64,000 nucleotides of DNA from Aliiroseovarius sp. (lineage in GTDB: Bacteria > Pseudomonadota > Alphaproteobacteria > Rhodobacterales > Rhodobacteraceae), in the NCBI RefSeq assembly GCF_965228805.1, contig NZ_CBDDIE010000003.1:511445-575444 (forward strand), given 5' to 3'. Shown here piece after piece: positions 7,515 through 51,291 of the stretch (positions are counted from its first letter, which is position 1; the number at the start of each line of letters is the position of its first letter). Position numbers and translations under genes: made by a program. Below the pieces are notes generated by a model. That model did no database searches. It was not told the DNA's origin and saw only the letters and a program-made list of their open reading frames with translations.

Positions 7515-8516
7515 TCATGCAAGCCCTTCGAGAAGGCGCTTCATCTGCTTGCGGCCATGCGAAAACCGGGGCAACCGCCTGGCCCAGTTCGTGAAATCCG
7601 CCCGGACGCTCGTGGAGAAGTCCAGGATGTCCTGAACGGTTTCAAAGACCACGGCCCCTTGCGGCGGGATTTCCGGCGCGAACTTCCGCCCCATGCGCGC
7701 TTCGACCCAGGCAATGTCGGAGGCATTCTCGACGAGCGCCGGGCTGACGACCTCCTCGCCCAGATCAAACCGTGTCGACCCGAACTTCGCAATCGCATGC
7801 GGAAAGGCGCGCCTTCGGCCATGCTCGCGCGGTTCGCCGCGTTCTTCCTGGCGACACCGCCATTCAAAGAGCGTTGCGAAGGCTTCCGCAGAAATGGAGG
7901 GGTTCAGCTCCTTTCCCGCGGGCAGGTCGGCAGGGTCGAAGCCGACGCGACGCGCGAAATCCGTCAACACGTCCTGCCCCTCCAACCTGTCCCGTTCGAA
8001 GGGAATCAGGGTCATATGGTCTGCCCCGAGGGCCTTTTCCCATTTTTCAAACCGCTTGCCGTAGCCGGGCCAAAGGGCGGCGCCCGAAAATTGCGTGAAG
8101 CCGACCTTGACCCGTTGCTGCGCCTGCGACCGCATATAGCTGCGGGGAGGCCGGATATAGGCGAGCGCCTGGACCTGGTCGAAATGCGGCGACATCGCGC
8201 AGAGCAGGTCGGTCACTTTCTCAGGGGGCAGCATCTGCGGGAACCCTTCGCCCGAGATCACCACATCGCGCCGGTCGCGACCAAGTTCGTGGTCCAGGTC
8301 CTTGCGCGTGATTTGCGGGCGCACGGGCTTTCCCCCGGCAAAGTAGTTTTCCCGCTGCTGTTCCTCGCCGAACAGCTGGATCATCGCAGGCGTGTGGTTC
8401 GGCATGCCAAGCGAAAAATAGCGCACGCGGTCGTTCTGTACGCCGGACAGGCCGTTCTGGATCGTGGTTGACCCGGTCTTGTTCATGCCCAGGTGCAGAA
8501 AGAGCGTGCGCGTCAT
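7515..8516 (-). CDS. Hypothetical protein, possible sulfotransferase-like P-loop fold
   Basis: N-terminal '[13 protein letters not shown]' resembles the PAPS 5'-phosphosulfate-binding loop of sulfotransferases. The rest is not recognised. Start overlaps the trpF stop (operonic). Confidence 0.45.
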
Positions 8517-9160
8517 TTTGCGCCCGTGGCCGCCGTCACGAACCGTGCGACCAGGCCCGCATCCTTTTCGCCCGGGGCGCTTTCCACGCCGGAACTCACG
8601 TCAACCTGGCGCGCGCCGGTGCGTTTGATCGCCTCGGCCACGTTGTCAGGATTGAGCCCTCCGGCCAGCAGCCATGGGCAGGGCCAGTATTTGCGCGCCA
8701 CGAGCGTCCAGTCAAAGGCCAGGCCGTTGCCACCCGGCAGCACGGCGCCCTTGGGCGCCTTGGCGTCGATCAAGAGCTGATCGGCCACCGGGGCGTAGAG
8801 GTCGATCTGCACCACGTCTGCGGCTTCCGCAATGCCGATCGCCTTGATCACGGGCAGGCCGAAGCGGTCCTTGACCTCGGCCACCCGTTCGGGGCTTTCG
8901 GCGCCATGCAGCTGGATCATGTCGGTGGTGGTGGCATCCAGAATGCGTGCGATCTGATCATCCGGGGCGTTCACCACCAGGGCGACCTTGGCCACGCCCA
9001 CGGGTACATCGAGCATCAGCGCGCCCGCCTCGGCGGGCGTCACGTAACGCGGGCTTTTCGGAAAGAAGTTGAAGCCGATATAGCGCGCGCCAGCCTCGGC
9101 CGCCGCCGCCACTTGCTCGGGCCGCTTGAGCCCGCAGATCTTGACCGAAATCTCCGCCAT
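8513..9160 (-). CDS. trpF: Phosphoribosylanthranilate isomerase
   Basis: ICGLK…[12 protein letters not shown]… is a typical TrpF (PRAI) sequence, ~215 aa. Confidence 0.9.
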
Positions 9161-9169
9161 GGGCGGTGT

Positions 9170-9520
9170 TTACCGCGCTTCCTCAAGCAAGGCCAGAACA
9201 TCGTCGCCGGTCTTGCTTTCGGGCGTCTTGATCGTCTTGACCTCACGCTCCAGCTTGGCGACCGAGCGCTTGGCCCGCGCCCCTTCGGCCCGGTGCTTGT
9301 GTTCGCGCAGCCACTCCCAGACGAAACCGATCAGCACGCCCGAGATGATCGCACCGAAAATGATGATGAAGAGCGGCAGCGTCACCGACCATGAGAAACC
9401 CAGGAAGCCGGTCAGCCCCTCGGGCAGCAGGTGCAGCGTCACCGCGCCGCGATTGGCCATGGCGACCGTGACCAGACAGACCGCCAAGGCGGCCAGGAAC
9501 GCATAGCGAATGTAACGCAT
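9170..9520 (-). CDS. LapA/DUF1049-like inner-membrane protein
   Basis: Two TM helices then a charged coiled tail. Conserved position immediately downstream of ihfB in alphaproteobacteria. Confidence 0.6.
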   Translation of the reverse strand: MRYIRYAFLAALAVCLVTVAMANRGAVTLHLLPEGLTGFLGFSWSVTLPLFIIIFGAIISGVLIGFVWEWLREHKHRAEGARAKRSVAKLEREVKTIKTPESKTGDDVLALLEEAR

Positions 9521-9814: not shown

Positions 9815-10043
9815 CCCATTCCCCCCATTCGACCTGTTTCGGCGCCTTTTGGGCAGTGCGCCGTTCCCATCAACTATAGGGACATATTTTCCACCGTGAA
9901 ACTGTGGCGTATGGGAAAGTTCGGATTTTTTGCGCCCAATATGCTGTTTTTTCTGCGCAAATGGGCGAGTTATCGCCGGAGACGGCGGTGATGCCGTCCC
10001 CGTGCCCGCGCCGCGCCGATTAGGCGCAGCCTTTGATTCGGCA

Positions 10044-10080: not shown

Positions 10081-10180
10081 GATCTTGTCACCTGAGCGGT
10101 GAAGGAGACTTAAAACACTACGCCCGTCAGCACGTGTCGTGGCGCTTCGGGAAACCTGCAAGCAGGCTCCCCGAACCGTT

Positions 10181-11860
10181 TTAGTTGTCGCCCTTCAGAG
10201 CCGCGCCCAGGATATCGCCGAGCGAGGCGCCCGAGTCCGAGGAACCGTACTGTTCAACGGCCTCTTTCTCTTCGGCGATCTCGCGGGCCTTGATCGACAG
10301 GCCCAGACGACGGGTCTTGTTGTCGACATTGGTGACGCGCACGTCGACCTTGTCGCCCACGCCGAAGCGCTCCGGGCGCTGCTCGGCACGGTCGCGCGAC
10401 AGGTCCGAACGGCGGATGAAGGATTTCATGCCTTCGTATTCCACCTCAACGCCACCGTCTTCGATCGCGGTCACTTCGACGGTGATGATCGAACCACGCT
10501 TCACGCCGCCCACGGCTTCGGCGAACTTGTCACCGCCCAGGGCTTTGATCGACAGCGAGATACGCTCCTTGTCGGTGTCCACTTCGGAGACCACGGCCTG
10601 AACCACGTCGCCCTTCTTGTATTCCTGGATGGCTTCTTCGCCACGCTGGTCCCAGGAGATGTCGGACAGGTGAACCATGCCGTCGATCTCGCCGTCGAGG
10701 CCGATGAACAGACCGAATTCGGTGATGTTCTTGACCTCGCCCTCGACCTCGGTGCCTTCCGGGTGGGTCTCGGCGAAGACTTCCCACGGGTTGCGCATGG
10801 TCTGCTTGAGACCCAGCGACACGCGGCGCTTGGCGCTGTCGATTTCCAGCACCATGACTTCGACTTCCTGCGAGGTCGACACGATCTTGCCGGGGTGCAC
10901 GTTCTTCTTGGTCCAGGACATTTCGGACACGTGGACCAGACCTTCGACGCCGGCTTCCAGCTCGACGAACGCACCGTAGTCGGTGATGTTCGTGACGCGA
11001 CCGGTGTGCACCGATTCCAGCGGGTACTTGGCGGCAACCAGATCCCACGGATCGTCCTGCAGCTGCTTCATGCCCAGCGAGATGCGGTGGGTTTCCTTGT
11101 TGATCTTGATGACCTGAACCTTGATGGTCTCGCCGATCGACAGGATTTCCGACGGGTGGTTCACACGGCGCCAGGCCATGTCGGTGACGTGCAGCAGGCC
11201 GTCGACACCGCCCAGGTCCACGAAGGCACCATATTCGGTGATGTTCTTGACGACACCGTCCACGGCCATGCCTTCGGCCAGCTTGCCGATGACCTCGGCG
11301 CGCTGTTCGGCGCGGCTTTCTTCCAGGATGGCGCGGCGCGAGACAACGATGTTGCCACGGCGACGGTCCATTTTCAGGATCTGGAACGGCTGCTTCAGAC
11401 CCATCAGCGGGCCCGCGTCACGCACGGGGCGCACGTCAACCTGCGAGCCGGGCAGGAAGGCCACGGCACCGCCCAGGTCGACAGTGAAGCCGCCCTTGAC
11501 GCGACCGAAGATCGCGCCTTCGACGCGCTGCTCGTCGGCATAGGCTTTTTCCAGGCGGTCCCAGGCTTCTTCGCGGCGGGCCATCTCACGCGAGATGACG
11601 GCTTCGCCACGGGCGTTCTCGGCGGCGCGCAGGTAGACTTCGACCTCGTCGCCAACGGCGATCTCGGGCGCTTCACCGGGATTTGCGAATTCCTTGACAT
11701 CCACGCGGCCTTCCATCTTGTAGCCGACGTCGATGATGGCTTGACCGGCCTCGATGGCGATGATCTTGCCTTTGACAACCGACCCTTCGGTCGGGGTGTC
11801 CATTTCGAAGCTTTCGTTAAGGAGGGCTTCGAATTCCTCCATGGTTGCTTTAGCGCACAT
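10181..11860 (-). CDS. rpsA: 30S ribosomal protein S1
   Basis: Six S1 RNA-binding repeats, 559 aa. Conserved cmk-rpsA-ihfB neighbourhood. Confidence 0.97.
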   Translation of the reverse strand: MCAKATMEEFEALLNESFEMDTPTEGSVVKGKIIAIEAGQAIIDVGYKMEGRVDVKEFANPGEAPEIAVGDEVEVYLRAAENARGEAVISREMARREEAWDRLEKAYADEQRVEGAIFGRVKGGFTVDLGGAVAFLPGSQVDVRPVRDAGPLMGLKQPFQILKMDRRRGNIVVSRRAILEESRAEQRAEVIGKLAEGMAVDGVVKNITEYGAFVDLGGVDGLLHVTDMAWRRVNHPSEILSIGETIKVQVIKINKETHRISLGMKQLQDDPWDLVAAKYPLESVHTGRVTNITDYGAFVELEAGVEGLVHVSEMSWTKKNVHPGKIVSTSQEVEVMVLEIDSAKRRVSLGLKQTMRNPWEVFAETHPEGTEVEGEVKNITEFGLFIGLDGEIDGMVHLSDISWDQRGEEAIQEYKKGDVVQAVVSEVDTDKERISLSIKALGGDKFAEAVGGVKRGSIITVEVTAIEDGGVEVEYEGMKSFIRRSDLSRDRAEQRPERFGVGDKVDVRVTNVDNKTRRLGLSIKAREIAEEKEAVEQYGSSDSGASLGDILGAALKGDN

Positions 11861-12152
11861 ACAGTTCAGTTTCCTTCATAGTCGCTATTCGGGCCATGCG
11901 GTTGTCTCCGCAGGTCTTTCAGGTTTCATTTGGCCGACAAGCCAGACGCAAAACAAAGAGGGCCGGTGAACCCGACCCTGCTCGATTTTCCCTGTATCGC
12001 GGCGTTTTCGCCTTGTCGACAGGGCGCGTGTAGACGGTTTTGCCCAACAAGACAAGGGGATTCGGGTCGTGGGGCACAGGGTGGCAAGGCACCGCTTTCC
12101 CGAATCCCGTCCGCCTGCCTATAGTGAGCCCAGTTCAACCACGGAGCGTTCG

Positions 12153-12824
12153 ATGGACTACCAGTTCTCCGCCCCCGACCTGGTCGGGCACCTGTCCTTC
12201 CTGATGCTGGTCCTGGCGATGACCATGCGCTCGATGTGGAAGCTCAGGGTGATGGTGGCCGCCTCGGCCATTCTGGCGATCACCTATGACTTCTTCTGGC
12301 TGGCCGATCCCGCGAACCTTTTGTGGCAGGGGGTACTGCTGATCACCGTGCTGGTGATGCTCGCCCTGCGCTGGCGCGCCGGGCGGGACGTGGGCTTTAC
12401 CGAAGAGGAGCGGGCGCTGCTCGACACCGCCCTGCACGGGTTGAAACCCCAGGATGCGCGGCGGCTGCTGTCCGAGGGGATCTGGGCCAGCGGCAAACCG
12501 GGCGCCGCACTGACCGAGCAGGGCAAACCGGTGCTGTTCCTGACCTGGCTGGCCGAGGGCGAAGCCGACGTGATCTGCGACGCCCAGGAGCTGGGCCACG
12601 TGCACGCGGGCAGCTTCGTGGGCGAGATGTCCCTGCTGGAAGGCACCGCCGCCAGCGCCACCGTGACCCTGACCACCCCCGCGCGGTATTGGATGATCCC
12701 GGCCATCAAGCTGCGCGACCTGAAACGCGACGAGCCCGAAATCTGGGCCAGCGTCGAAGCGGCGCTGAGCCGCGACCTGGGCCGCAAACTGCGCGAGATG
12801 AACGCGGGGGCAGTGGCGGGTTAA
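12153..12824 (+). CDS. Membrane protein with C-terminal cyclic-nucleotide-binding (cNMP/Popeye-like) domain
   Basis: Three N-terminal TM helices, then a CAP-family cNMP-binding signature (…GSFVGEMSLLEG…). Start at ATG 12153 (MDYQFS). Confidence 0.55.
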   Translation: MDYQFSAPDLVGHLSFLMLVLAMTMRSMWKLRVMVAASAILAITYDFFWLADPANLLWQGVLLITVLVMLALRWRAGRDVGFTEEERALLDTALHGLKPQDARRLLSEGIWASGKPGAALTEQGKPVLFLTWLAEGEADVICDAQELGHVHAGSFVGEMSLLEGTAASATVTLTTPARYWMIPAIKLRDLKRDEPEIWASVEAALSRDLGRKLREMNAGAVAG

Positions 12825-23019: not shown

Positions 23020-23379
23020 TCAGCTGCCATTGTCCGGGACGTAATCGCGAATGCCGGGGTTGTCCGACTGGTAATCGCCCACCACCGTGCCCGGTGCGTG
23101 ATTGTCATCGCAAACCGGCAGGCCCGATTTCGGATCGAACCGACGCCCAGCATAGCCTTCGACACCATCGTCGATCATCCAGCCCTGGCAGCCATCGGGA
23201 TCATAGACGATCGCGGCCTGGCCGTCGGCGATATTGGCCGCGTCCCGGCCACGGTCCTGATTGGTGGCAATGACCGAGTTCGGGTTGCCATTATAGGCCT
23301 GCAGGCCCTGACCTTCGACACAGGCCGACAGGGTCAGGGAGGCACCGATCAGGGCAAAGGGAAGAATACGCTTCATCAT
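23020..23379 (-). CDS. Hypothetical lipoprotein with a Cys-containing 'DGC-W-DG-EGY-DP-G-PVC' domain
   Basis: Lipobox LTLSAC. The domain is paralogous to the N-terminal half of the adjacent OmpA-family protein. Confidence 0.5.
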   Translation of the reverse strand: MMKRILPFALIGASLTLSACVEGQGLQAYNGNPNSVIATNQDRGRDAANIADGQAAIVYDPDGCQGWMIDDGVEGYAGRRFDPKSGLPVCDDNHAPGTVVGDYQSDNPGIRDYVPDNGS

Positions 23380-23954
23380 TTGTCATCCCACGTGTAGCAC
23401 ACCACCTCGACGCGGCGGTTCTTCTGCATGTTGGCGGCGCTGTCATTGGGCGCGACCGGGCGGCGTTCGCCATAGCCGATCTCGCGCTCGACCACGGCGC
23501 CGACGGAACGGGCCACCTTGGCGACCGACCGCGCACGGCGCTGCGACAGGCGCATGTTGTATTCATCCGAGGCACGGCTGTCGGTATGGCCGTAGATGGC
23601 GTAGCCGAAGGCGCCGGCATTGCGGAAGAAATTCTCCAACCGCGCTTTGCCCGAAGCGGTCAGCCGGTGGCTGTCGGTCGCGAACAACGTATCGGTGTTT
23701 TCGGTCAGACAGACATTCTTTTCCAGGCAGACCGGGCGGCCGGTTTCCGGGTCAACGCGGTCCAGCATGTAGCCTTCCAGCCCGCCGTCAGCCCACCAAT
23801 GCATGCAGCCATCATAGTCCACCCAGAGGCCCCAGTTCACAGTGCCCGCGGTCGGCGGAGGCGAACTCTGCGCCTGGGCCGGAGCCGCCAATCCCAGCGA
23901 CAGGGCTGCAACAGCCATCGCGCCGGACATTACTTTGCCAATTCTCTTCACCAC
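23376..23954 (-). CDS. OmpA-family peptidoglycan-associated protein with a novel N-terminal Cys domain
   Basis: Signal peptide. C-terminal OmpA_C-like motif (GHTDSRASDEYNMRLSQRRARSVA). N-terminal domain shared with the downstream lipoprotein. Confidence 0.75.
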   Translation of the reverse strand: MVKRIGKVMSGAMAVAALSLGLAAPAQAQSSPPPTAGTVNWGLWVDYDGCMHWWADGGLEGYMLDRVDPETGRPVCLEKNVCLTENTDTLFATDSHRLTASGKARLENFFRNAGAFGYAIYGHTDSRASDEYNMRLSQRRARSVAKVARSVGAVVEREIGYGERRPVAPNDSAANMQKNRRVEVVCYTWDDK

Positions 23955-37078: not shown

Positions 37079-37828
37079 ATGGACTTTTCGCGCACGCAGC
37101 GTAATGGTTCGGGGGCAGGAGAGGCAAGAGCAGAGGAAAGCAACGTGGCGAGTTTCAATATCGACGGGATCAAGCTGCGCGTGCCCGGCCATTGCCTGAC
37201 CCCGCCCCTGATCCGCGGCCTGGAAAGCGGGCATTACGAATGGAACGAGAAATCCGCGCTGAAACGCCACCTGGAGCGCGGCGACCGGGTGCTGGAGCTG
37301 GGCGCGGGGGCGGGTTATCTGTCGATCCTGTCCGCCCAGCGCATCGGCGGCGAGAACGTGGTCAGCGTCGAGGCGAGCCCCGCCATGCTGGACGTGCTGC
37401 GCAAGAACCTCGACAGCAATGGTGCGCGCGACGTGGACCTGCGCCACGGCGCGGTTGTCGCCGATCGCTACGCCGGTGAAACCGTGCGGTTCCGGGTCAG
37501 CGAGGCGTTCTGGGCCTCGTCCCTGGCGGGCGAGGCGACCGGTGACAATGTGGTCGAGGTGCCAGCCCTGCGCCTGACCGACCTGCTGGAGGAGGTGCAG
37601 CCGACGGTGGTGGTGATGGACGTGGAAGGCGCCGAACTCGAACTCTGCGAGCGCGACTGGCCCGCCTGCGTGCGTCTGTTGATCATGGAAATCCACACCC
37701 GCCAATACGGCCCCACCAAGGTCAAGGCGATGTTCGATGCACTGAGCCGGGCGGGCTTCACCTACATGCCATGGGGCACACGCGGCGAGGTGGTGACATT
37801 GCAACGTGTTCTTCCGGCCCCGGAGTGA
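37079..37828 (+). CDS. FkbM-family SAM-dependent methyltransferase
   Basis: SAM motif VLELGAGAGY. FkbM-like C-terminal region. Confidence 0.7.
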   Translation: MDFSRTQRNGSGAGEARAEESNVASFNIDGIKLRVPGHCLTPPLIRGLESGHYEWNEKSALKRHLERGDRVLELGAGAGYLSILSAQRIGGENVVSVEASPAMLDVLRKNLDSNGARDVDLRHGAVVADRYAGETVRFRVSEAFWASSLAGEATGDNVVEVPALRLTDLLEEVQPTVVVMDVEGAELELCERDWPACVRLLIMEIHTRQYGPTKVKAMFDALSRAGFTYMPWGTRGEVVTLQRVLPAPE

Positions 37829-38076: not shown

Positions 38077-38718
38077 TTATTCTTCGGCGGCGGCCTCTTC
38101 GACGGCCTCTTCGCCGTTTTCGCCTTCTTCATCATCCGACGAACGCAGCGAGCTGGGCGCCGAGATGTTGGCCACGACGAAGTCGCGGTCGATGGTCGGC
38201 TTGGCGCCTTCCGGCAGCGGGATGTCCGAGATGTGGATCACGTCGCCCACTTCGCGGCCGGTCAGGTCGCAGACGATCTTTTCCGGGATGTCGCCGGCGG
38301 TCACGCGCAGTTCGACTTCCGAACGCACCACGGTCAGAACGCCGCCCTTCTTGATGCCGGGGGCTTCTTCTTCGTTGATGAACTCGACGTGGATGAACAG
38401 GTTCACCTTGCTGGTACGCTTCAGGCGCATCAGGTCCACGTGGGTCGGCAGGTCCTTGACCACGTCACGCTGCACGCCGCGGCAGATCACGCGCACATCT
38501 TCCTGACCTTCGACCTTCAGGTTCCACAGGGTCGACAGGAAACGACCAGCTTTCAGCTTCTTGAACAGGTCGTTGTATTTCAGGTTGATGGCCTGGGGTT
38601 CGCCCTCGCCACCATAAACGATGCCGGGAACGAGGCCGTCACGACGCGCCTGGCGAGCGGCGCCCTTGCCCGTCCCCGCACGCACCGTAGCTTCAAGATT
38701 CGGAATCTCACGAGCCAT
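38077..38718 (-). CDS. rplY: 50S ribosomal protein L25 / general stress protein Ctc
   Basis: L25 N- and C-domains with acidic tail. Conserved pth-rplY neighbourhood. Confidence 0.93.
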
Positions 38719-38781
38719 TGGTATATATCCTTCAGTTTGGGCGGGGCTCCTCCAAGGCTGTAACCCCGCGTGAAGCGCTGC

Positions 38782-40083
38782 CTATAGCCGGGAATCGGGT
38801 GGATGGGAAGAGGTTTGTTGGCCGACAACACCCCAAGCGTCTTCCAGTGCTTTCTGCACCTTTGGCAAGTGCCTTTCCCAGTATCTGGCGAATTCCATCG
38901 CAATCTTCTCGGCGATTTCCGAGGGGGCCTTCCCATCCTGATTGTGGTTTGAAAAGCTTGTCTTGGAAAGAAGCTGTTTCGAGGCGAATATCTTCCACTT
39001 CGCCGAGAGGAAATTTTTTCTGCCCCCGACCTTGATGCCCGATCCCGCGGCCGACAGCACATCGAACAGGGCTTGCCGGGCCGCTGTGTCACCGGGACCA
39101 AGGACCAACTTGGTAAGAGCCGTCTGGTTCTGTACCTGCAACTCGATCATCAACAGGCGTTTTGACTTTGCCCAAGTTCCATCCCCTGCGCGCATGTGCG
39201 GCTTGTCATCCCATGTATCGACACAAAAGCGCAGGAAACGCCCCGCGCTATCGTCTTTACTGAAAGCCAAGGTGCCTTTTCTGTCGGGCAGAGAGACCGT
39301 GAGCTTGTCAGAATCCGCCTCCAGCGCTTCAATGACCTCACGCTCCAGGTCCGGCCGATACTCCATCAACAACTCAAGGGCTGCACCGTGGTCACGCCAC
39401 AGCTGGCGAATGGTGCGTTCAAGCTCGGTGTCGGGCATGATATGCCTCCTCAACATGGCCACGTATTGGGCAAAAAGCTCGGCTCCAGAAACATCGCAAA
39501 GTTCCCCGCGCACGACCGGCGCCAGCTTGTCCACCACCGTTTTCAGGGATAAGAGCCCCCAGTATTCCACCTCATCTCCCTGCGGCATCGTCTCGTCCTT
39601 GGGAAGGAAGATCAGGCGAATATCTGCGCCCGGGAAGCTTTCGTTCAACAGAGTGCGATAGCGCTCCAACTGCCCTTTTCCCTCGACCGCATGAATTTTC
39701 TGCTCCACCGCGATGATCAGCTCATTTGCTTTTCCGTGCAGGGTGGGGATGCGGATCAGCAGATCAATACGCCGCCATTCACGCAGGATCTCGGCGCGGT
39801 CAAACTGCAAACGTGACAGATCCAACGCATTGGGAGATTCATCAGGCGCGACCGCGACCACCAATCGGAGAAACTCCCGCAACAACCGGTCACCGAACCC
39901 ATGCGGATTCTTGGGATCCAGGCAATAGGCCAGGAAAGTGGAGTGCCGGATCTCCTGATGTACCATGCCGATGGCCTCGAACGGGCAGAACACACCGACA
40001 CGTTTCTCAACTGCCTTAAAGCCCTGCGCATCCGTAGCCGCCAACACCAGTTCGATCTTGGCGCTGTCTGTCACCTGTTTCAT
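38782..40083 (-). CDS. PD-(D/E)XK nuclease superfamily protein (orphan, low-GC; putative defence/restriction-like)
   Basis: Catalytic core pattern E(…FEAIG…)…D (RIDLLIRIP) … E-x-K (LIIAVEQK) in the N-terminal third. Start ATG at 40081-40083 has GGAGG 5 nt upstream (the ORF's GTG at 40095 is less likely). GC is markedly lower than the flanks. Confidence 0.7.
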   Translation of the reverse strand: MKQVTDSAKIELVLAATDAQGFKAVEKRVGVFCPFEAIGMVHQEIRHSTFLAYCLDPKNPHGFGDRLLREFLRLVVAVAPDESPNALDLSRLQFDRAEILREWRRIDLLIRIPTLHGKANELIIAVEQKIHAVEGKGQLERYRTLLNESFPGADIRLIFLPKDETMPQGDEVEYWGLLSLKTVVDKLAPVVRGELCDVSGAELFAQYVAMLRRHIMPDTELERTIRQLWRDHGAALELLMEYRPDLEREVIEALEADSDKLTVSLPDRKGTLAFSKDDSAGRFLRFCVDTWDDKPHMRAGDGTWAKSKRLLMIELQVQNQTALTKLVLGPGDTAARQALFDVLSAAGSGIKVGGRKNFLSAKWKIFASKQLLSKTSFSNHNQDGKAPSEIAEKIAMEFARYWERHLPKVQKALEDAWGVVGQQTSSHPPDSRL

Positions 40084-40177
40084 GGGAACCTCCACCTATA
40101 CGCGAAACTAGCGGGCTTAACAGTGCTGTCAACTTTGAAACTTGCTTTGGAGAAAACCCCGTGCCAGCGCTTGGCAT

Positions 40178-44398: not shown

Positions 44399-44632
44399 TC
44401 CGGCGCATCAAGCGACGCGCGAACGCCCCGTCCAAACGGGGGCGCAGGGTTGAATACCGTCGCCTTTCCCTTCAAATCCGTCAGCCCGCGCAAGCGCGGG
44501 TTGATTTTTTCTGCAACGCAGCATATGCCCATCCTGACGGAATGCCGCGGAAGGAGGATTCGGGCTGTTCCTGTTCAGGGGGCACCCGTACTGTGACCGC
44601 AACGTCACTGACACGAGGTAGAGGACCACATC

Positions 44633-45811
44633 ATGACCAATGTCGTTATCGTTTCCGCCGCCCGGACTGCCGTTGGCAGCTTCTCGGGCTCGTTCGCCAA
44701 CACCCCGGCCCATGACCTGGGCGCCGCCGTGCTGGAGGCGATCGTAGAGCGCGCCGGCATCGACAAGGCAGAGGTTTCCGAAACCATCCTCGGCCAGGTG
44801 CTGCAAGCAGGCCAAGGCCAGAACCCGGCCCGCCAGGCGCACATCAACGCCGGGCTGCCGCAGGAAAGCGCCGCCTGGGCGATCAACCAGGTCTGCGGTT
44901 CGGGCCTGCGCACCGTCGCGCTGGCCGCGCAGCACATCCAGCTGGGTGATGCGGGCATCGTTGCCGCCGGCGGCCAGGAAAACATGTCGCTGAGCCCCCA
45001 CGTCGCGCACCTGCGCGCAGGCTACAAGATGGGCGACATGAAATTCATCGACACGATGATCAAGGACGGGTTGTGGGACGCTTTCAACGGCTACCACATG
45101 GGGCAGACCGCCGAGAACGTTGCCGAACAGTGGCAGATCACCCGCGACATGCAGGATGAATTCGCCGTTGCCTCGCAGAACAAGGCCGAAGCCGCTCAGA
45201 AAGCTGGCAAGTTCGCCGACGAGATCGTGCCCTTCACCGTGAAGACCCGCAAGGGCGACATCATCGTCGATCAGGACGAATACATCCGCCACGGCGCCAC
45301 CATGGAAGCGATGCAGAAACTGCGCCCCGCCTTCGTGCGTGACGGCGGCACCGTGACCGCCGCGAACGCCTCGGGCATCAACGACGGCGCCGCCGCCGTG
45401 CTGCTGATGTCGGCCGAGGAAGCCGAGAAACGTGGCCTGGAGCCTCTGGCCCGCATCGCCTCCTACGCCACCGCCGGGCTGGACCCGTCGATCATGGGCG
45501 TCGGCCCGATCCATGCAAGCCGCAAGGCGCTGGACAAGGCCGGCTGGAACGCCGCTGACCTGGACCTGGTCGAGGCCAACGAAGCCTTCGCGGCCCAGGC
45601 CTGCGCGGTGAACAAGGACATGGACTGGGATCCGGCCAAGGTAAACGTGAACGGCGGCGCGATCGCCATCGGTCACCCGATCGGCGCCTCGGGCTGCCGC
45701 ATCCTGAACACCCTGCTGTTCGAGATGAAGCGCTCGGACGCCAAGAAGGGCCTGGCCACGCTCTGCATCGGTGGCGGCATGGGCGTCGCAATGTGCCTGG
45801 AGCGCCCGTAA
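44633..45811 (+). CDS. phaA: Acetyl-CoA C-acetyltransferase (beta-ketothiolase)
   Basis: Thiolase motifs ([21 protein letters not shown]). Confidence 0.93.
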
Positions 45812-46699: not shown

Positions 46700-46989
46700 G
46701 ACTGTCACCTCTGGAAAAACCGAAGGGCCGGTCACGAAGACCGGCCCTTTTTCGTCGGCGACCTGTCAGCCCTTGCGGTGGAACAGCCAGTTCCAGGCGG
46801 CCCGCACGGCCATGGCGCGTTCGTAATGGGCCCGGGCGTAGATCGCCGTCATGGCGGGGGTGGTTGCAGCTTCCAACATCAGCGCTCTCCTTTTATCAAG
46901 CATTCCTGAACTGTCCTAAACATGGGCCTCTCTCACTAAAGAAACAAACGAGACTTCACAGCCAATCAGTTAAGTGATACTTGTCTGAC

Positions 46990-47937
46990 ATGTCTGACCG
47001 CCTGCCCCCTCTCACAGCCCTGCGCGCCTTTGACGCCGCCGCCCGCCACATGTCGTTTCAGGAGGCCGCGGCCGAGTTGAACGTGACCCCCGCCGCCCTG
47101 TCCTTTCAGATCAAGTCGCTGGAACAGCATCTGGGCACGCCGGTGTTTCATCGGCTCAATCGTGCGGTGGAACTGACCGAAGCCGGGCGGGTTCTGGCCC
47201 CCGGCGTCAAGGACGGGTTCGAGACCCTGACCACCGCCTGGCGCGCCGCACTGCGCCTGCAGGACAACCGCACCCTGACGGTGACAGCGGGCCCCGCCTT
47301 TACCGCGAAATGGCTGGCCCCGCGACTTTACGATTTCGCCCGCGCCCACCCGGATATCGACCTGCGCTTCTCGGCCAGCCTGCGTATGATGGATTTCACC
47401 CGGGATGAGGTAGACGTGGCGATCCGGTTCGGCCGCGGTGATGACAGCGGGCTGTATTCCCTGCCTCTGCGCCGGGAATGGATGACGCCGGTGATGACCC
47501 CGGAAATGGCACGCCAATATCCGACCCCCGAAAGCCTGCGCGACGCCCCCATCCTGTTCGACGAGTCGATCGACTTCCTGAAACCGGCCTGCGACTGGCC
47601 GACCTGGTTTCGCGCTGTCGGCATGGATTTCGCACCTGAACACGGCCCGCGATTCTCGCAAGCCGACCACGCGGTGGATGCGGCCATTGCGGGGGCGGGC
47701 GTGGTACTGGGCCGCCGTGCGATGGTGGTGCGCGCCCTGCATGAGGGCACGCTGGTCGCGCCCTACAAGATCGCGCTGCTCAGCCAGGCCCGATTCCGGT
47801 TCCTGTGCCAGAAGGGCGCCGAGGACCGGCCCCAGATCAAGGCCTTTCGCGATTGGGTGCTGAGCGAGCTGGAAAAAACCGCCCATGTCTCGGACGCATT
47901 GAGCTTTGTTCCGGTCGCGGACGTCGCAGCCACATGA
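46990..47937 (+). CDS. LysR-family transcriptional regulator
   Basis: N-terminal HTH (LRAFDAAARHMSFQEAAAELNVTPAALSFQIKSLE) plus LysR substrate domain. Confidence 0.85.
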   Translation: MSDRLPPLTALRAFDAAARHMSFQEAAAELNVTPAALSFQIKSLEQHLGTPVFHRLNRAVELTEAGRVLAPGVKDGFETLTTAWRAALRLQDNRTLTVTAGPAFTAKWLAPRLYDFARAHPDIDLRFSASLRMMDFTRDEVDVAIRFGRGDDSGLYSLPLRREWMTPVMTPEMARQYPTPESLRDAPILFDESIDFLKPACDWPTWFRAVGMDFAPEHGPRFSQADHAVDAAIAGAGVVLGRRAMVVRALHEGTLVAPYKIALLSQARFRFLCQKGAEDRPQIKAFRDWVLSELEKTAHVSDALSFVPVADVAAT

Positions 47938-48809
47938 CGCGCAGGCAGGCCACTGGAATCGGCTTTGTCGCCGTGCTGCTCTGGGCACTTCTGGCGCTGT
48001 TCACCGTGGGGTCCGCGCCGGTGCCGCCCTTTCAGCTGAACGCTATGTGCTTTGCCATCGGCGGCATAATCGGGTTGGTCTGGACCGGCATGACGGGCGG
48101 ATTCGGGGTGCTGCGTAGCATTTCCTGGCGCGTCTATGCCTTCGGCACAGCCGGGCTGTTCGGCTATCACTTCTTATATTTCTCGGCCCTGCGCATGGCC
48201 CCCGCAGCCGAAGCCGGGCTGATCGCCTATCTCTGGCCGCTGCTGATCGTGCTGTTTTCCGGACTTTTGCCAGGAGAACACCTGCGCGGCGGCCATGTGT
48301 TGGGCGCATTAATCAGCTTTGCGGGCGCGGCGCTGATCGTGCTGGGTGGCGCGACCGGGTTCGATGGCTCCGCCCTGCCTGGCTTTGCCCTGGCCGCGCT
48401 CTGCGCGCTGACCTGGTCGGGCTATTCGGTGTTGTCACGCCGGTTGGGCGACACCCCCACCGCCTCGGTCGCGGTATTCTGTCTGGCCACCGCGGTGCTG
48501 TCAGGGGCCGCGCATCTGGCGCTGGAGGAGACGGTCGCGCCTGTCGGCGCGCTCGGCTGGGCGTCCGTGTTCGGACTGGGGCTCGGCCCGGTCGGGCTGG
48601 CTTTCTATGTCTGGGATGTGGGGGTGAAACGGGGCGACATCCAACTGTTGGGCGTGGCGTCCTATGCAGCGCCTCTGCTGTCGACCCTGGCCTTGATCCT
48701 GGCCGGTGTGGCCCAAGCCACCTGGCCCCTTCTGGTTGCGGCGGTATTGATCACCGGGGGCGCTGCGCTGGCCGCGAATGCAAGCGCACGGGCCAGCGCC
48801 AAGGTGTGA
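47934..48809 (+). CDS. DMT-superfamily (EamA-like) transporter
   Basis: Ten TM helices, two EamA halves. ATGA overlap with the LysR stop. Confidence 0.75.
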   Translation: MTRRQATGIGFVAVLLWALLALFTVGSAPVPPFQLNAMCFAIGGIIGLVWTGMTGGFGVLRSISWRVYAFGTAGLFGYHFLYFSALRMAPAAEAGLIAYLWPLLIVLFSGLLPGEHLRGGHVLGALISFAGAALIVLGGATGFDGSALPGFALAALCALTWSGYSVLSRRLGDTPTASVAVFCLATAVLSGAAHLALEETVAPVGALGWASVFGLGLGPVGLAFYVWDVGVKRGDIQLLGVASYAAPLLSTLALILAGVAQATWPLLVAAVLITGGAALAANASARASAKV

Positions 48810-48840
48810 GCGGGGCGCCGAGGGCACCCCTTTGCGCATG

Positions 48841-49014
48841 TCACGCGGTGGCGGTCGACAGGCGCTCGATCTCTTCCTTGAGCTTGAGTTTCTGCTTCTT
48901 CAGCTCGCTGATTTCCTGGTCGCTCGATCCCGGCGCGCGTTGCACCTCTTCGACCTTTTCAGAGAGGAGTTCGTGTTTCTTCCGAAGTTCTTCCAGATGC
49001 GAACTCATGCTCAT
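48841..49014 (-). CDS. DUF465 (YdcH-like) small protein
   Basis: HLEELRKKHELLSEKV…LKKQKLKLKEEIERL. Confidence 0.6.
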   Translation of the reverse strand: MSMSSHLEELRKKHELLSEKVEEVQRAPGSSDQEISELKKQKLKLKEEIERLSTATA

Positions 49015-49236
49015 GGGCGTATCTCCTCTGACTGTTTTGCCCACCGAGTGCAGCATACTTTCAAAGCTTTGTCACGCGCCTGTTGCAAAGAGATTGAGGC
49101 GATTACGTCGCACCTTCCGCCACCCACTCCCGTGTGGGTTCTGCTATGCTCTCTTGCCACGGTTGCGATCCCGCGCACGCGGCATGCGTGCCGGGAGCAG
49201 ACACCGGGCGGTGAGCAGAGCTGGACTGCTGGAGGT

Positions 49237-49998
49237 TTACCAGAGCGGGAATGCCGCCCCGTCGCGCAGGATCGCGCTGACTTCGGGGCGGTAGCTTTCC
49301 GCGTCGCCCACATGCTCAGCCCCGTCATGCAGGATCAGCGGTGTGGCCAGGCGGAACGCCCCGCGCCCGCCCTTGCGGGCCTGAACCAAAACCAGAACCG
49401 CCGCACGCCCTTCGCGCGGGCAGAGCGGTTTGACCAGCACCGACCCCAGGCGATCATCCATCGCGCCCAGGATTTCCGGCAACCGCTCGGCCTTCTGGAT
49501 CATGGTCAGGAAACCCTTGTGCTTCAGACGCTTGGTCGCGACATCAACCCAGTCACGCAGCGGCGTATCCTCGACCAAGGCAGCCTCACGGATCGGATCG
49601 GGCGCCACGGTGCCACGATCGCGCAGGTGATAGGGCGGGTTCATGATGACGTGATCAAAGCTCTCTTCCTTCACCGCATCAGGCAACTGCGTCAAGTCGC
49701 AGTGATGCACATCCATCGGAATCGAGTTTTCAAACGCGTTCTTGTCACAGAGGTCGGCATATTCCTCCATCCGTTCGACGCCGACGATGCGCAGCCCCGG
49801 AACGCGGCGCCCCAGGCACAGGGCAGCAGCGCCAACGCCGCAGCCGAGCTCCAGGATGCTTTCACCCTCATGCGCAGCGATTGAGGCGGCCAGAAACACG
49901 GGATCCACCCCCGCGCGGTACCCATTGCGGGGTTGGAACAGCATAACGTCCCCGCCCAGAAACTTGTCCGCGGTCACCGCGTCACGTGCAAAACCCAT
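49237..49998 (-). CDS. N6-adenine methyltransferase, tRNA1(Val) m6A37 (YfiC/TrmN6)-like
   Basis: SAM motif ILELGCGVGA and the NPPY catalytic tetrad. Confidence 0.75.
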   Translation of the reverse strand: MGFARDAVTADKFLGGDVMLFQPRNGYRAGVDPVFLAASIAAHEGESILELGCGVGAAALCLGRRVPGLRIVGVERMEEYADLCDKNAFENSIPMDVHHCDLTQLPDAVKEESFDHVIMNPPYHLRDRGTVAPDPIREAALVEDTPLRDWVDVATKRLKHKGFLTMIQKAERLPEILGAMDDRLGSVLVKPLCPREGRAAVLVLVQARKGGRGAFRLATPLILHDGAEHVGDAESYRPEVSAILRDGAAFPLW

Positions 49999-50215: not shown

Positions 50216-50289
50216 GATCAGATACTTAAGGGCAAACCCCCGGGTTTGTCGAGACACAGGACCCCAGGGCGGGTCGGGGTGACGGGAAC

Positions 50290-51291
50290 GTGAAGATGCT
50301 GGACGAAGCCGCAACCAAGCCGCATGAGCGTCTGGGCAAACATTTGGCCGAGGACATGAATTCGGTCAATGAACTGATTCGCGCCCGTATGGCATCGAAA
50401 CATGCCCCCCGCATTCCCGAGGTCACCGCGCATCTGGTCGAGGCTGGCGGAAAGCGCCTGCGCCCGATGCTGACCCTGGCCGCTGCGCGCATGTGTGGCT
50501 ACGAGGGCCCCTATCACGTGCACCTGGCCGCCACCGTCGAGTTCATCCACACCGCCACCCTGTTGCATGACGACGTGGTCGATGAAAGTGCGCAGCGACG
50601 TGGGCGGCCGACCGCCAACCTGCTCTGGGACAACAAGTCCAGCGTGTTGGTCGGCGACTACCTGTTCTCGCGCTCGTTCCAGCTGATGACCGAAACCGGC
50701 TCGCTGGAGGTGCTGCGCATCCTGTCCAACGCCTCGGCGACAATCGCGGAAGGCGAGGTGCTGCAGTTGACCGCCGCACAGGACCTGGCCACGGATGAAG
50801 CCATCTATCTGCAGGTCGTGCGCGGCAAGACCGCCGCGCTGTTCTCGGCGGCAACCGAAGTGGGTGGGGTCATTGCCGGTGCGGGCGAGGCCCATGTGAA
50901 GGCTCTGTTCGACTACGGCGACGCGCTGGGGATTTCCTTCCAGATCGTCGATGACCTGCTGGACTACTGGGGCGGCGACGCGACCGGCAAGAACATCGGC
51001 GACGACTTCCGCGAGCGCAAGCTGACCCTGCCGGTGATCAAGGCCGTGGCCAAGGCGGATGCTGAAGAGCGCGCCTTCTGGACCCGCACGATCGAGAAGG
51101 GCCGTCAGGAAGAGGGCGACCTTGAGACCGCGCTGGCGCTTCTGAACAAGCACAATGCGCTGGAAGAGACCCGCCAGGAGGCGCTGGCCTGGGCCGAGAA
51201 GGCCAAGGCCGCCATGGCGCAACTGCCCGAGGGGGATATCCGCCAGATGCTGACGGATATTGCCGACTATGTGGTGGCGCGGGTGAACTGA
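50290..51291 (+). CDS. ispB: Polyprenyl diphosphate synthase (octa/decaprenyl-diphosphate synthase)
   Basis: Two Asp-rich motifs: LLHDDVVDES and FQIVDDLLD. Confidence 0.9.
   Translation: MKMLDEAATKPHERLGKHLAEDMNSVNELIRARMASKHAPRIPEVTAHLVEAGGKRLRPMLTLAAARMCGYEGPYHVHLAATVEFIHTATLLHDDVVDESAQRRGRPTANLLWDNKSSVLVGDYLFSRSFQLMTETGSLEVLRILSNASATIAEGEVLQLTAAQDLATDEAIYLQVVRGKTAALFSAATEVGGVIAGAGEAHVKALFDYGDALGISFQIVDDLLDYWGGDATGKNIGDDFRERKLTLPVIKAVAKADAEERAFWTRTIEKGRQEEGDLETALALLNKHNALEETRQEALAWAEKAKAAMAQLPEGDIRQMLTDIADYVVARVN

Follow-up and report, generated by a model that had tools for sequence, protein, structure and literature searches.

A solitary PDDEXK_4 / PDC-S26 nuclease gene upstream of rplY in Aliiroseovarius: a candidate for a horizontally circulating defence cassette

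A stretch of 64,000 nucleotides from Aliiroseovarius sp. (assembly GCF_965228805.1, contig NZ_CBDDIE010000003.1, positions 511,445 to 575,444 of the forward strand), hereafter called the window, carries a compositionally foreign gene for a predicted PD-(D/E)XK nuclease between rplY and a gene for a major facilitator superfamily (MFS) transporter. According to profile matches, the gene belongs to PDDEXK_4 / PDC-S26, a family already catalogued as a defence candidate, and it is a clean natural example of this very large group of nucleases. On balance, it is somewhat probable that the gene forms a standalone, horizontally circulating cassette encoding a defence-type nuclease. Beyond the catalogue entry, polymorphism of the slot upstream of rplY and mosaicism at the level of single domains are described here, by which the question of specificity in this family becomes directly testable.

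Gene, catalytic core and family of the nuclease

The enclosing open reading frame (ORF) extends over positions 38782–40095 of the minus strand and comprises 437 codons when counted from a GTG. Translation likely starts at the ATG at 40083, which is preferred because a GGAGG ribosome-binding site (RBS; 40089–40093, minus strand, by direct reading of the sequence) is located 5 nt upstream of it and because the alternative GTG overlaps this GGAGG. The resulting coding sequence (38782–40083, minus strand, TAG stop codon at 38782–38784) specifies 433 amino acids and is intact, with a good RBS and all catalytic residues in place. A preliminary description of the window, made from the sequence alone, had announced a protein of about 433 residues preceded by a GGAGG; both the ORF and the RBS are borne out and the presence of the nuclease gene is confirmed, whereas the span 38719–40141 assigned there to the gene is the entire intergenic region between rplY and the MFS gene. 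WP_421701637.1 from an Aliiroseovarius sp. assembly, where it carries the annotation 'PD-(D/E)XK nuclease family protein', has 100% identity with the deduced protein.

The Pfam model PDDEXK_4 (PF14281) matched with 82.5 bits (cut-off 22.3; E=4.6e-23) over residues 39–183 of the 437-residue ORF, and in the numbering of the 433-residue protein, used from here on, the nuclease domain occupies residues 35–179 (39547–39981, minus strand). In an alignment of 89 homologues, E44, H47, D107, E127, K129, Q138, L139 and Y142 are invariant, and E36, E102, Y207, M210, R212, R213, H232, P244, W291 and R336 are nearly so. E44 and H47 lie in the motif QEIRHS, D107 in RIDLLIRIP, and E127 and K129 in LIIAVEQK, the minus-strand codons being located at 39952–39954 (E44), 39763–39765 (D107), 39703–39705 (E127) and 39697–39699 (K129). 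From the motifs FEAIG, RIDLLIRIP and LIIAVEQK an E…D…ExK core had been read in the preliminary description, of which the D and the ExK are retained in all homologues, whereas the first acidic residue is E44, the invariant acid on the first core helix, and not E36 of FEAIG, which is conserved in just 93%.

The AlphaFold2 model of the protein (mean predicted local distance difference test score, pLDDT, 90.6; predicted template-modelling score, pTM, 0.79) displays the order helix, three strands, helix, strand, the canonical PD-(D/E)XK fold. Helix 44–55 holds E44 and H47, strand 106–112 (strand 2) opens with D107, strand 122–129 (strand 3) holds E127-x-K129, and helix 138–149 holds the further invariant motif QxxxY (Q138, L139, Y142). 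In the PD-(D/E)XK superfamily, strands 2 and 3 bear the D…(D/E)xK residues and helix 1 bears an acidic residue; the model has this arrangement, with the D, E and K at catalytic positions, and the absence of a nuclease fold, which had been considered as a possible refutation, is not what it shows. QxxxY is typical of RecB, Cas4 and lambda-exonuclease-type enzymes, and its position on the helix following the ExK strand is that of the RecB/Cas4-like clade. The protein is predicted to be a metal-dependent PD-(D/E)XK nuclease of the RecB/Cas4-like type. Cas4 proper was rejected because conserved cysteines, of which Cas4 has four for its iron–sulphur cluster, are absent from the alignment, where no cysteine appears among the invariant or near-invariant columns.

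The nuclease domain is joined by a conserved helical bundle (39289–39501, minus strand, residues 195–265; near-invariant Y207, M210, R212, R213, H232, A235 and P244; delimited from the alignment and the model) to a variable C-terminal alpha+beta domain with a long terminal helix (38806–39288, minus strand, residues 266–426). Mean pairwise identity over the family falls from 0.44 in the nuclease core to 0.34 in the helical bundle and to 0.17–0.23 in the C-terminal part, a clear gradient of variability. No Pfam family describes the bundle or the C-terminal domain, the Pfam model spanning only residues 35–179. The C-terminal domain weakly resembles YktB/PF0168-like proteins (DUF1054; PDB 2a8e, 3mqz and 1yb3), and the best structural matches are proteins without known function. 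When the model was compared with the PDB by Foldseek, nothing was obtained at E<=0.001; the nominal top match was Cap4 (E=0.024, template-modelling (TM) score about 0.14), and the weak matches include MspJI, AspBHI and the N-terminal domain of McrB, at the level of a shared fold only. The earlier view of an N-terminal nuclease followed by a tail without assigned function agrees with the Pfam, AlphaFold2 and structural searches, the tail amounting to roughly 240 residues.

Although the preliminary description could not assign the protein to a named system, the PADLOC model PDLC04977 of PDC-S26 matched it over its full length (E=6.1e-97; residues 6–420 against model positions 2–395 of 400). Altogether 11 PDC-S26 models matched at E<=1, six of them in addition to PDLC04977 at E<=1e-5, and no PADLOC model of any other defence system matched the protein at E<=1. 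The hidden Markov model (HMM) searches with Pfam and PADLOC are in agreement, and by these matches the window gene is placed in the catalogued candidate family. No conserved neighbour accompanies the gene over 13 contexts, as would be expected of a single-gene system. When 1.84 billion cluster representatives (clusters at 50% identity) were searched with a profile, 2,516 proteins matched at E<=1e-30, and the number rose to 9,671 at E<=1e-10; the best matches almost all have about 390–440 residues and aligned end to end. The family is therefore large, and its two-part architecture is fixed. Searches of PHROGs, NCBIfam and PDB sequences, with the single protein or with a profile of 89 sequences, gave nothing useful, and no NCBIfam equivalog exists for the window protein.

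PDC-S26 is one of 145 'phage defence candidates' (PDC) that were selected on account of their location inside BREX, DISARM or type I restriction-modification (RM) systems (Payne et al., bioRxiv 10.1101/2024.01.29.577857). PDDEXK_4 was listed as a family of unknown function by Steczkiewicz et al. 2012 (PMC3424549). In the literature consulted, PDC-S26 is mentioned only in passing, no member of the family having been characterised and no structure solved.

Presence, absence and exchange at the rplY locus

The guanine-plus-cytosine (GC) content of the nuclease gene is 56.4% compared with 64% for the window, its GC at third codon positions (GC3) is 0.677 compared with 0.76–0.88 in nine neighbouring genes, and the gene is the lowest-GC 1.3-kb stretch of the whole 64 kb (0.3rd percentile). 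The preliminary description had correctly seen a compositionally foreign gene, its estimate of 50–55% GC being slightly too low.

In a survey of 80 species-level Rhodobacterales rplY loci, a nuclease upstream of rplY was found in one, that of Shimia sp. CNT1-13L.2, with 40% identity and the gene order FMN (flavin mononucleotide)-dependent dehydrogenase (FMNdh)-nuclease-rplY-pth-DUF2332, and it was absent from the other 79. The closest relative of the window among these loci is a metagenome-assembled genome of Aliiroseovarius (L005), in which rplY and FMNdh are 96% and 98% identical and in which, according to blastn and the alignment of the junctions, both the nuclease and the MFS gene are missing: the segment 38811–41544 of the window, comprising the MFS gene and the nuclease cassette, is replaced by 89 bp (L005 positions 9820–9908). 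In about 17 other loci of the 80 the MFS gene lies directly beside rplY, and in comparison with them the cassette has been inserted cleanly between a box on the MFS side and the -35 region of rplY. No convincing repeats, whether direct or inverted, that would indicate a transposon or an att site were found on either side of the cassette. The horizontal acquisition claimed earlier is in line with the foreign composition and with the absence of the gene from L005 and from nearly all of the surveyed loci.

In the strict sense, the nuclease gene is not the orphan that it had been taken for, as diverged homologues fill the same slot in three other assemblies, namely GCA_000732285.1 (L093) and a pair from Shimia (L001 and L095). 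All four slot alleles have a GC content 8–10 points under that of their flanks. In L093 the gene order of the window is kept from the EAL gene through the beta-lactamase gene and the flanking proteins are 82–97% identical, whereas the two nucleases share 49% identity over residues 7–310 and 37% over residues 294–423. Sliding DNA identity between the window and L093 is 0.8–0.95 in the flanks and drops to 0.36–0.74 only between about 40130 and 38840, and these breakpoints, together with the GC profile, delimit a low-GC cassette (38840–40130, without assigned strand) that contains the gene and its RBS region and lies between the promoters of the MFS side and of rplY. Both ORFs end in ...PPDSRL*. 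From this comparison it appears that the whole cassette has been replaced between the window and L093. The MFS, nuclease, pth, DUF2332 and thiolase genes of L093 are split into two or three ORFs, which points to frameshift errors of the assembly and not to real pseudogenes.

The Shimia pair behaves differently. The flanks of L001 and L095 are 93–99% identical in DNA, and codons 1–265 of the nuclease gene show a synonymous divergence (dS) of 0.29, near that of the flanking genes, with a ratio of nonsynonymous to synonymous divergence (dN/dS) of 0.11; from codon 266 to the end the proportion of synonymous differences (pS) reaches 0.79, which is saturated, and amino acid identity is 54%. Replacement of the C-terminal domain by recombination would be the simplest explanation. 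Positive selection in situ on the C-terminal domain was rejected, as synonymous sites are saturated there and not in the rest of the gene or in the flanks.

The MFS gene is itself polymorphic, being beside rplY in about 17 of 80 loci and missing from L005, and in other loci its place is taken by a roughly 200-residue sulfotransferase-like gene or by unrelated genes. The region upstream of rplY was considered as a general defence hotspot and rejected as such, since its fillers elsewhere are ordinary genes of native GC (sulfotransferase-like, flagellar). The last roughly 9 codons of the nuclease gene and its stop codon (38782–38810) lie in sequence shared with the gene-less L005, and therefore the ORF runs from the insert into ancestral rplY-promoter DNA. 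No terminator was found between the nuclease gene and the rplY promoter (consensus scans for promoters and terminators were uninformative), and read-through into rplY is therefore possible.

Possible functions of the nuclease cassette

In eight of ten loci in other genomes, the Shimia slot allele L001 being one of the ten, the GC content of the homologue lies 7–17 points below that of its surroundings. One homologue (L088) directly follows a prophage integrase, one in a Sphingobium prophage lies between an integrase fragment and a recombinase, one stands beside a resolvase and a small-terminase gene, and one (L090) adjoins BREX genes (BrxL, PglZ, PglX) and a C5 methylase. On plasmids, homologues reside in variable regions with HEPN/MNT and Doc toxin–antitoxin pairs, insertion sequences and recombinases. 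Homologues occur in 1 of 50,697 phage records and in 32 of 72,556 plasmid records.

In the somewhat favoured explanation, a single protein would defend the cell against phages or other mobile DNA, its N-terminal domain cutting DNA and its C-terminal domain setting the target or the timing through binding to a protein of foreign origin or to some feature of foreign DNA. The cassette is located between the MFS and rplY promoters, which are divergent, and its diversity would be maintained by recombination, of the entire cassette in one close pair and of the C-terminal domain alone in another, for which homologous recombination via the conserved flanking core genes would be the most plausible route. 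A mobile and patchy family, diversified by recombination and variable in its C-terminal part, fits an immune effector, and together with the nomination of PDC-S26 this is why a defence nuclease is ranked first. For the window nuclease we infer an anti-phage role, a trigger and a means of self/non-self discrimination, and the exchange data suggest that the C-terminal domain (residues 266–426), proposed here as a specificity or sensor module, is the part that carries specificity. The Shimia alleles are natural chimeras that are offered for a domain-swap test, with a nuclease half under purifying selection. If the family is protective, marine Rhodobacterales, to our knowledge a group with few validated defences, would have a further minimal immune system made up of one protein.

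Several points weigh against a role in defence. Some homologues stand alone among housekeeping genes, and guilt by association is therefore weak here. The window nuclease itself is without a defence neighbour, the remaining PADLOC matches in the window being distant generic cNMP (cyclic nucleoside monophosphate)-binding and OmpA/MotB domains. Nor does it lie in or next to a type I RM, BREX or DISARM system, the setting from which the family was nominated; L090 is the only sampled homologue with such a neighbour, and this setting nominates the family and is not required of each member. The PDC set was called untested by its authors (bioRxiv 10.1101/2024.01.29.577857), and in a later study, which covered eight other PADLOC candidates (seven PDCs and HEC-01) and found protection of E. 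coli by four of them, PDC-S26 was not included. Furthermore, a nuclease without a methylase must spare its own genome somehow. The near-absence from sequenced phage genomes is counted on this side as well, and it has no bearing either way on the targets.

A bolder version of the defence explanation, possible but doubtful, would hold that PDC-S26 proteins in general are single-protein immune nucleases with interchangeable YktB-like C-terminal domains, and that roseobacter alleles are shuffled at the rplY slot by homologous recombination, possibly after delivery by gene transfer agents. If true, the population as a whole would hold a library of specificities in this single slot, much as with the shuffling of hsdS but in a one-gene system.

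Service to mobile elements, either by end-processing of the RecB/Cas4 kind when the element recombines or replicates or in the competition of one element with another, with the chromosomal copy as a remnant, seems unlikely. The QxxxY motif is typical of end-processing enzymes and homologues do occur in prophages and on plasmids, but the window copy is intact, with its RBS and catalytic residues, and has no element genes around it, the position in prophages is proximal to the integrase and not among replication genes, and the family is rare in sequenced phage genomes.

Quite unlikely is a particular form of defence, a modification-dependent, type IV-like restriction enzyme whose C-terminal domain would read a modified base. 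With such an enzyme the need for a methylase would vanish, which would suit a solitary PD-(D/E)XK nuclease without a methyltransferase partner; a variable recognition domain would be expected, and MspJI, AspBHI and the McrB N-terminal domain are among the weak structural matches. Against this, neither Pfam nor PADLOC yields a match to Mrr, McrBC, MspJI, GmrSD or reader domains of the SRA/EVE/YTH type, and the nuclease-first order of domains is the reverse of that in Mrr and MspJI.

The recurrence in one slot calls for consideration of a free-standing, homing-type selfish endonuclease, which would cut empty sites upstream of rplY and be copied into them during repair. The slot is filled in Aliiroseovarius (window and L093) and in Shimia (L001 and L095) and empty in most relatives, and homing would explain such recurrence across genera without an integrase; the clean insertion between two promoters, the lack of mobility genes and flanking repeats at the cassette, and a nuclease with a variable, possibly DNA-binding second domain would fit as well. 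However, homing would spread one allele, and those in the slot are just 40–49% identical. Other members of the family are found at unrelated loci (prophage cargo sites, plasmids, beside BREX), no conserved target sequence was identified, and thousands of family clusters have no intron or intein association, all of which makes homing very unlikely as an explanation of the slot.

An ordinary Rhodobacterales housekeeping repair nuclease, merely richer in AT than its neighbours, can be nearly excluded: the core-gene setting beside rplY and the homologue at the same place in another genus would suit it, but the gene is missing in L005 and at 79 of the 80 species-level loci, identity is 37–49% between genomes whose flanking proteins are 82–97% identical, GC is under that of the host in most hosts, an NCBIfam equivalog is lacking, and the slot homologues are all without the native GC that the preliminary description had named as a mark of a housekeeping gene.

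Other features of the window and comparison with known systems

The nuclease gene is followed by rplY (38077–38718, minus strand, ATG at 38718), and a beta-lactamase-family gene, a DUF2332 gene and pth are further neighbours on the minus strand. On its other side lie the MFS gene (about 40142/40175–41320, plus strand) and then genes for the FMN-dependent dehydrogenase, Tag and an EAL-domain protein. This neighbourhood is as described earlier, except that the pth–rplY pair is interrupted by an FkbM-type methyltransferase gene (37079–37828, plus strand) of native GC, which is present at this position in many, not all, Rhodobacterales genera with 37–83% identity. As a cognate partner of the nuclease it was rejected, because many genera that lack the nuclease have retained it there. 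No integrase and no genuine defence neighbour was seen among the window proteins that were scanned, in agreement with the earlier statement that the nuclease has no partner nearby.

The leader of rplY (L25/Ctc) contains a conserved hairpin, GCGGGGTTACAGCCTTGGAGGAGCCCCGC, at 38741–38769 (minus strand), 23–51 nt upstream of the rplY ATG. Over 39 Rhodobacterales loci its loop ACA[G/C]CCTTGGAGG does not vary, and compensatory changes occur in each of the six outer stem pairs; the proportion of paired cells is 98% (slid controls, 46–63%), and 73 double changes were counted compared with 23.7 in shuffled alignments. Nothing in Rfam 15 matched at E<=1. The L25 leader already known comes from enterobacteria, and the comparative data suggest the present hairpin as a candidate for a new autoregulatory L25 leader.

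The PADLOC scan of the window took in 59 ORFs. No CBASS/CD-NTase model matched any of them. The cNMP-binding domain of a 251-residue membrane protein (12069–12824, plus strand) matched the N-terminal part of Pycsar 'TIR effector' models (E about 1e-10 to 1e-12); this gene was rejected as a TIR/PycTIR defence gene, as the match covers no TIR domain, and the protein is probably a generic cNMP-binding protein. A match to ZorB corresponds to an OmpA/MotB-like protein (23376–23954), which is not a defence gene, and a weak match to 'mad2' was obtained, the ORF of which was not located. Six long ORFs (8468–9394, 10139–11881, 44408–45676, 46966–47988, 48778–49884 and 50218–51222) have a lowish GC3 of 0.67–0.69 and remained without a match in Pfam or PADLOC at E<=1e-4; some of them may be artefacts on the wrong strand, of the kind that a high-GC genome produces, and others could represent additional foreign genes.

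Among known systems, a type II RM system would have a cognate methyltransferase adjacent to the nuclease, and the sole methyltransferase nearby is the one of FkbM type. Type IV restriction enzymes (Mrr, McrBC, MspJI, GmrSD) differ from the window protein, in which Pfam and PADLOC recognise neither a reader domain nor a catalytic domain of their families, and the likeness to homing endonucleases is confined to the recurrent slot. Pycsar systems are touched only by the few models that weakly matched the generic cNMP-binding domain about 26 kb from the nuclease. Cap4, the CBASS effector with an N-terminal endonuclease and a C-terminal SAVED sensor, resembles the window protein in having the nuclease first and the sensor second and was the top Foldseek match, whereas at the values given above there is no real match in fold past the nuclease core and the C-terminal domain of the window protein is not SAVED. 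Shedu (SduA, DUF4263) combines a PD-(D/E)XK nuclease and a variable regulatory domain in one defence protein without a methylase, the same plan as that of the window protein, from which it differs in that no DUF4263/SduA match was obtained in Pfam or PADLOC at E<=1. With Pfam PDDEXK_4 the protein shares the canonical D...ExK core and topology. From PDC-S26 as catalogued, the window copy differs in standing alone between rplY and the MFS gene and not in or beside RM, BREX or DISARM systems, and it shares with this family the single gene for about 400 residues, the same N-terminal PDDEXK_4 domain and the full-length HMM match.

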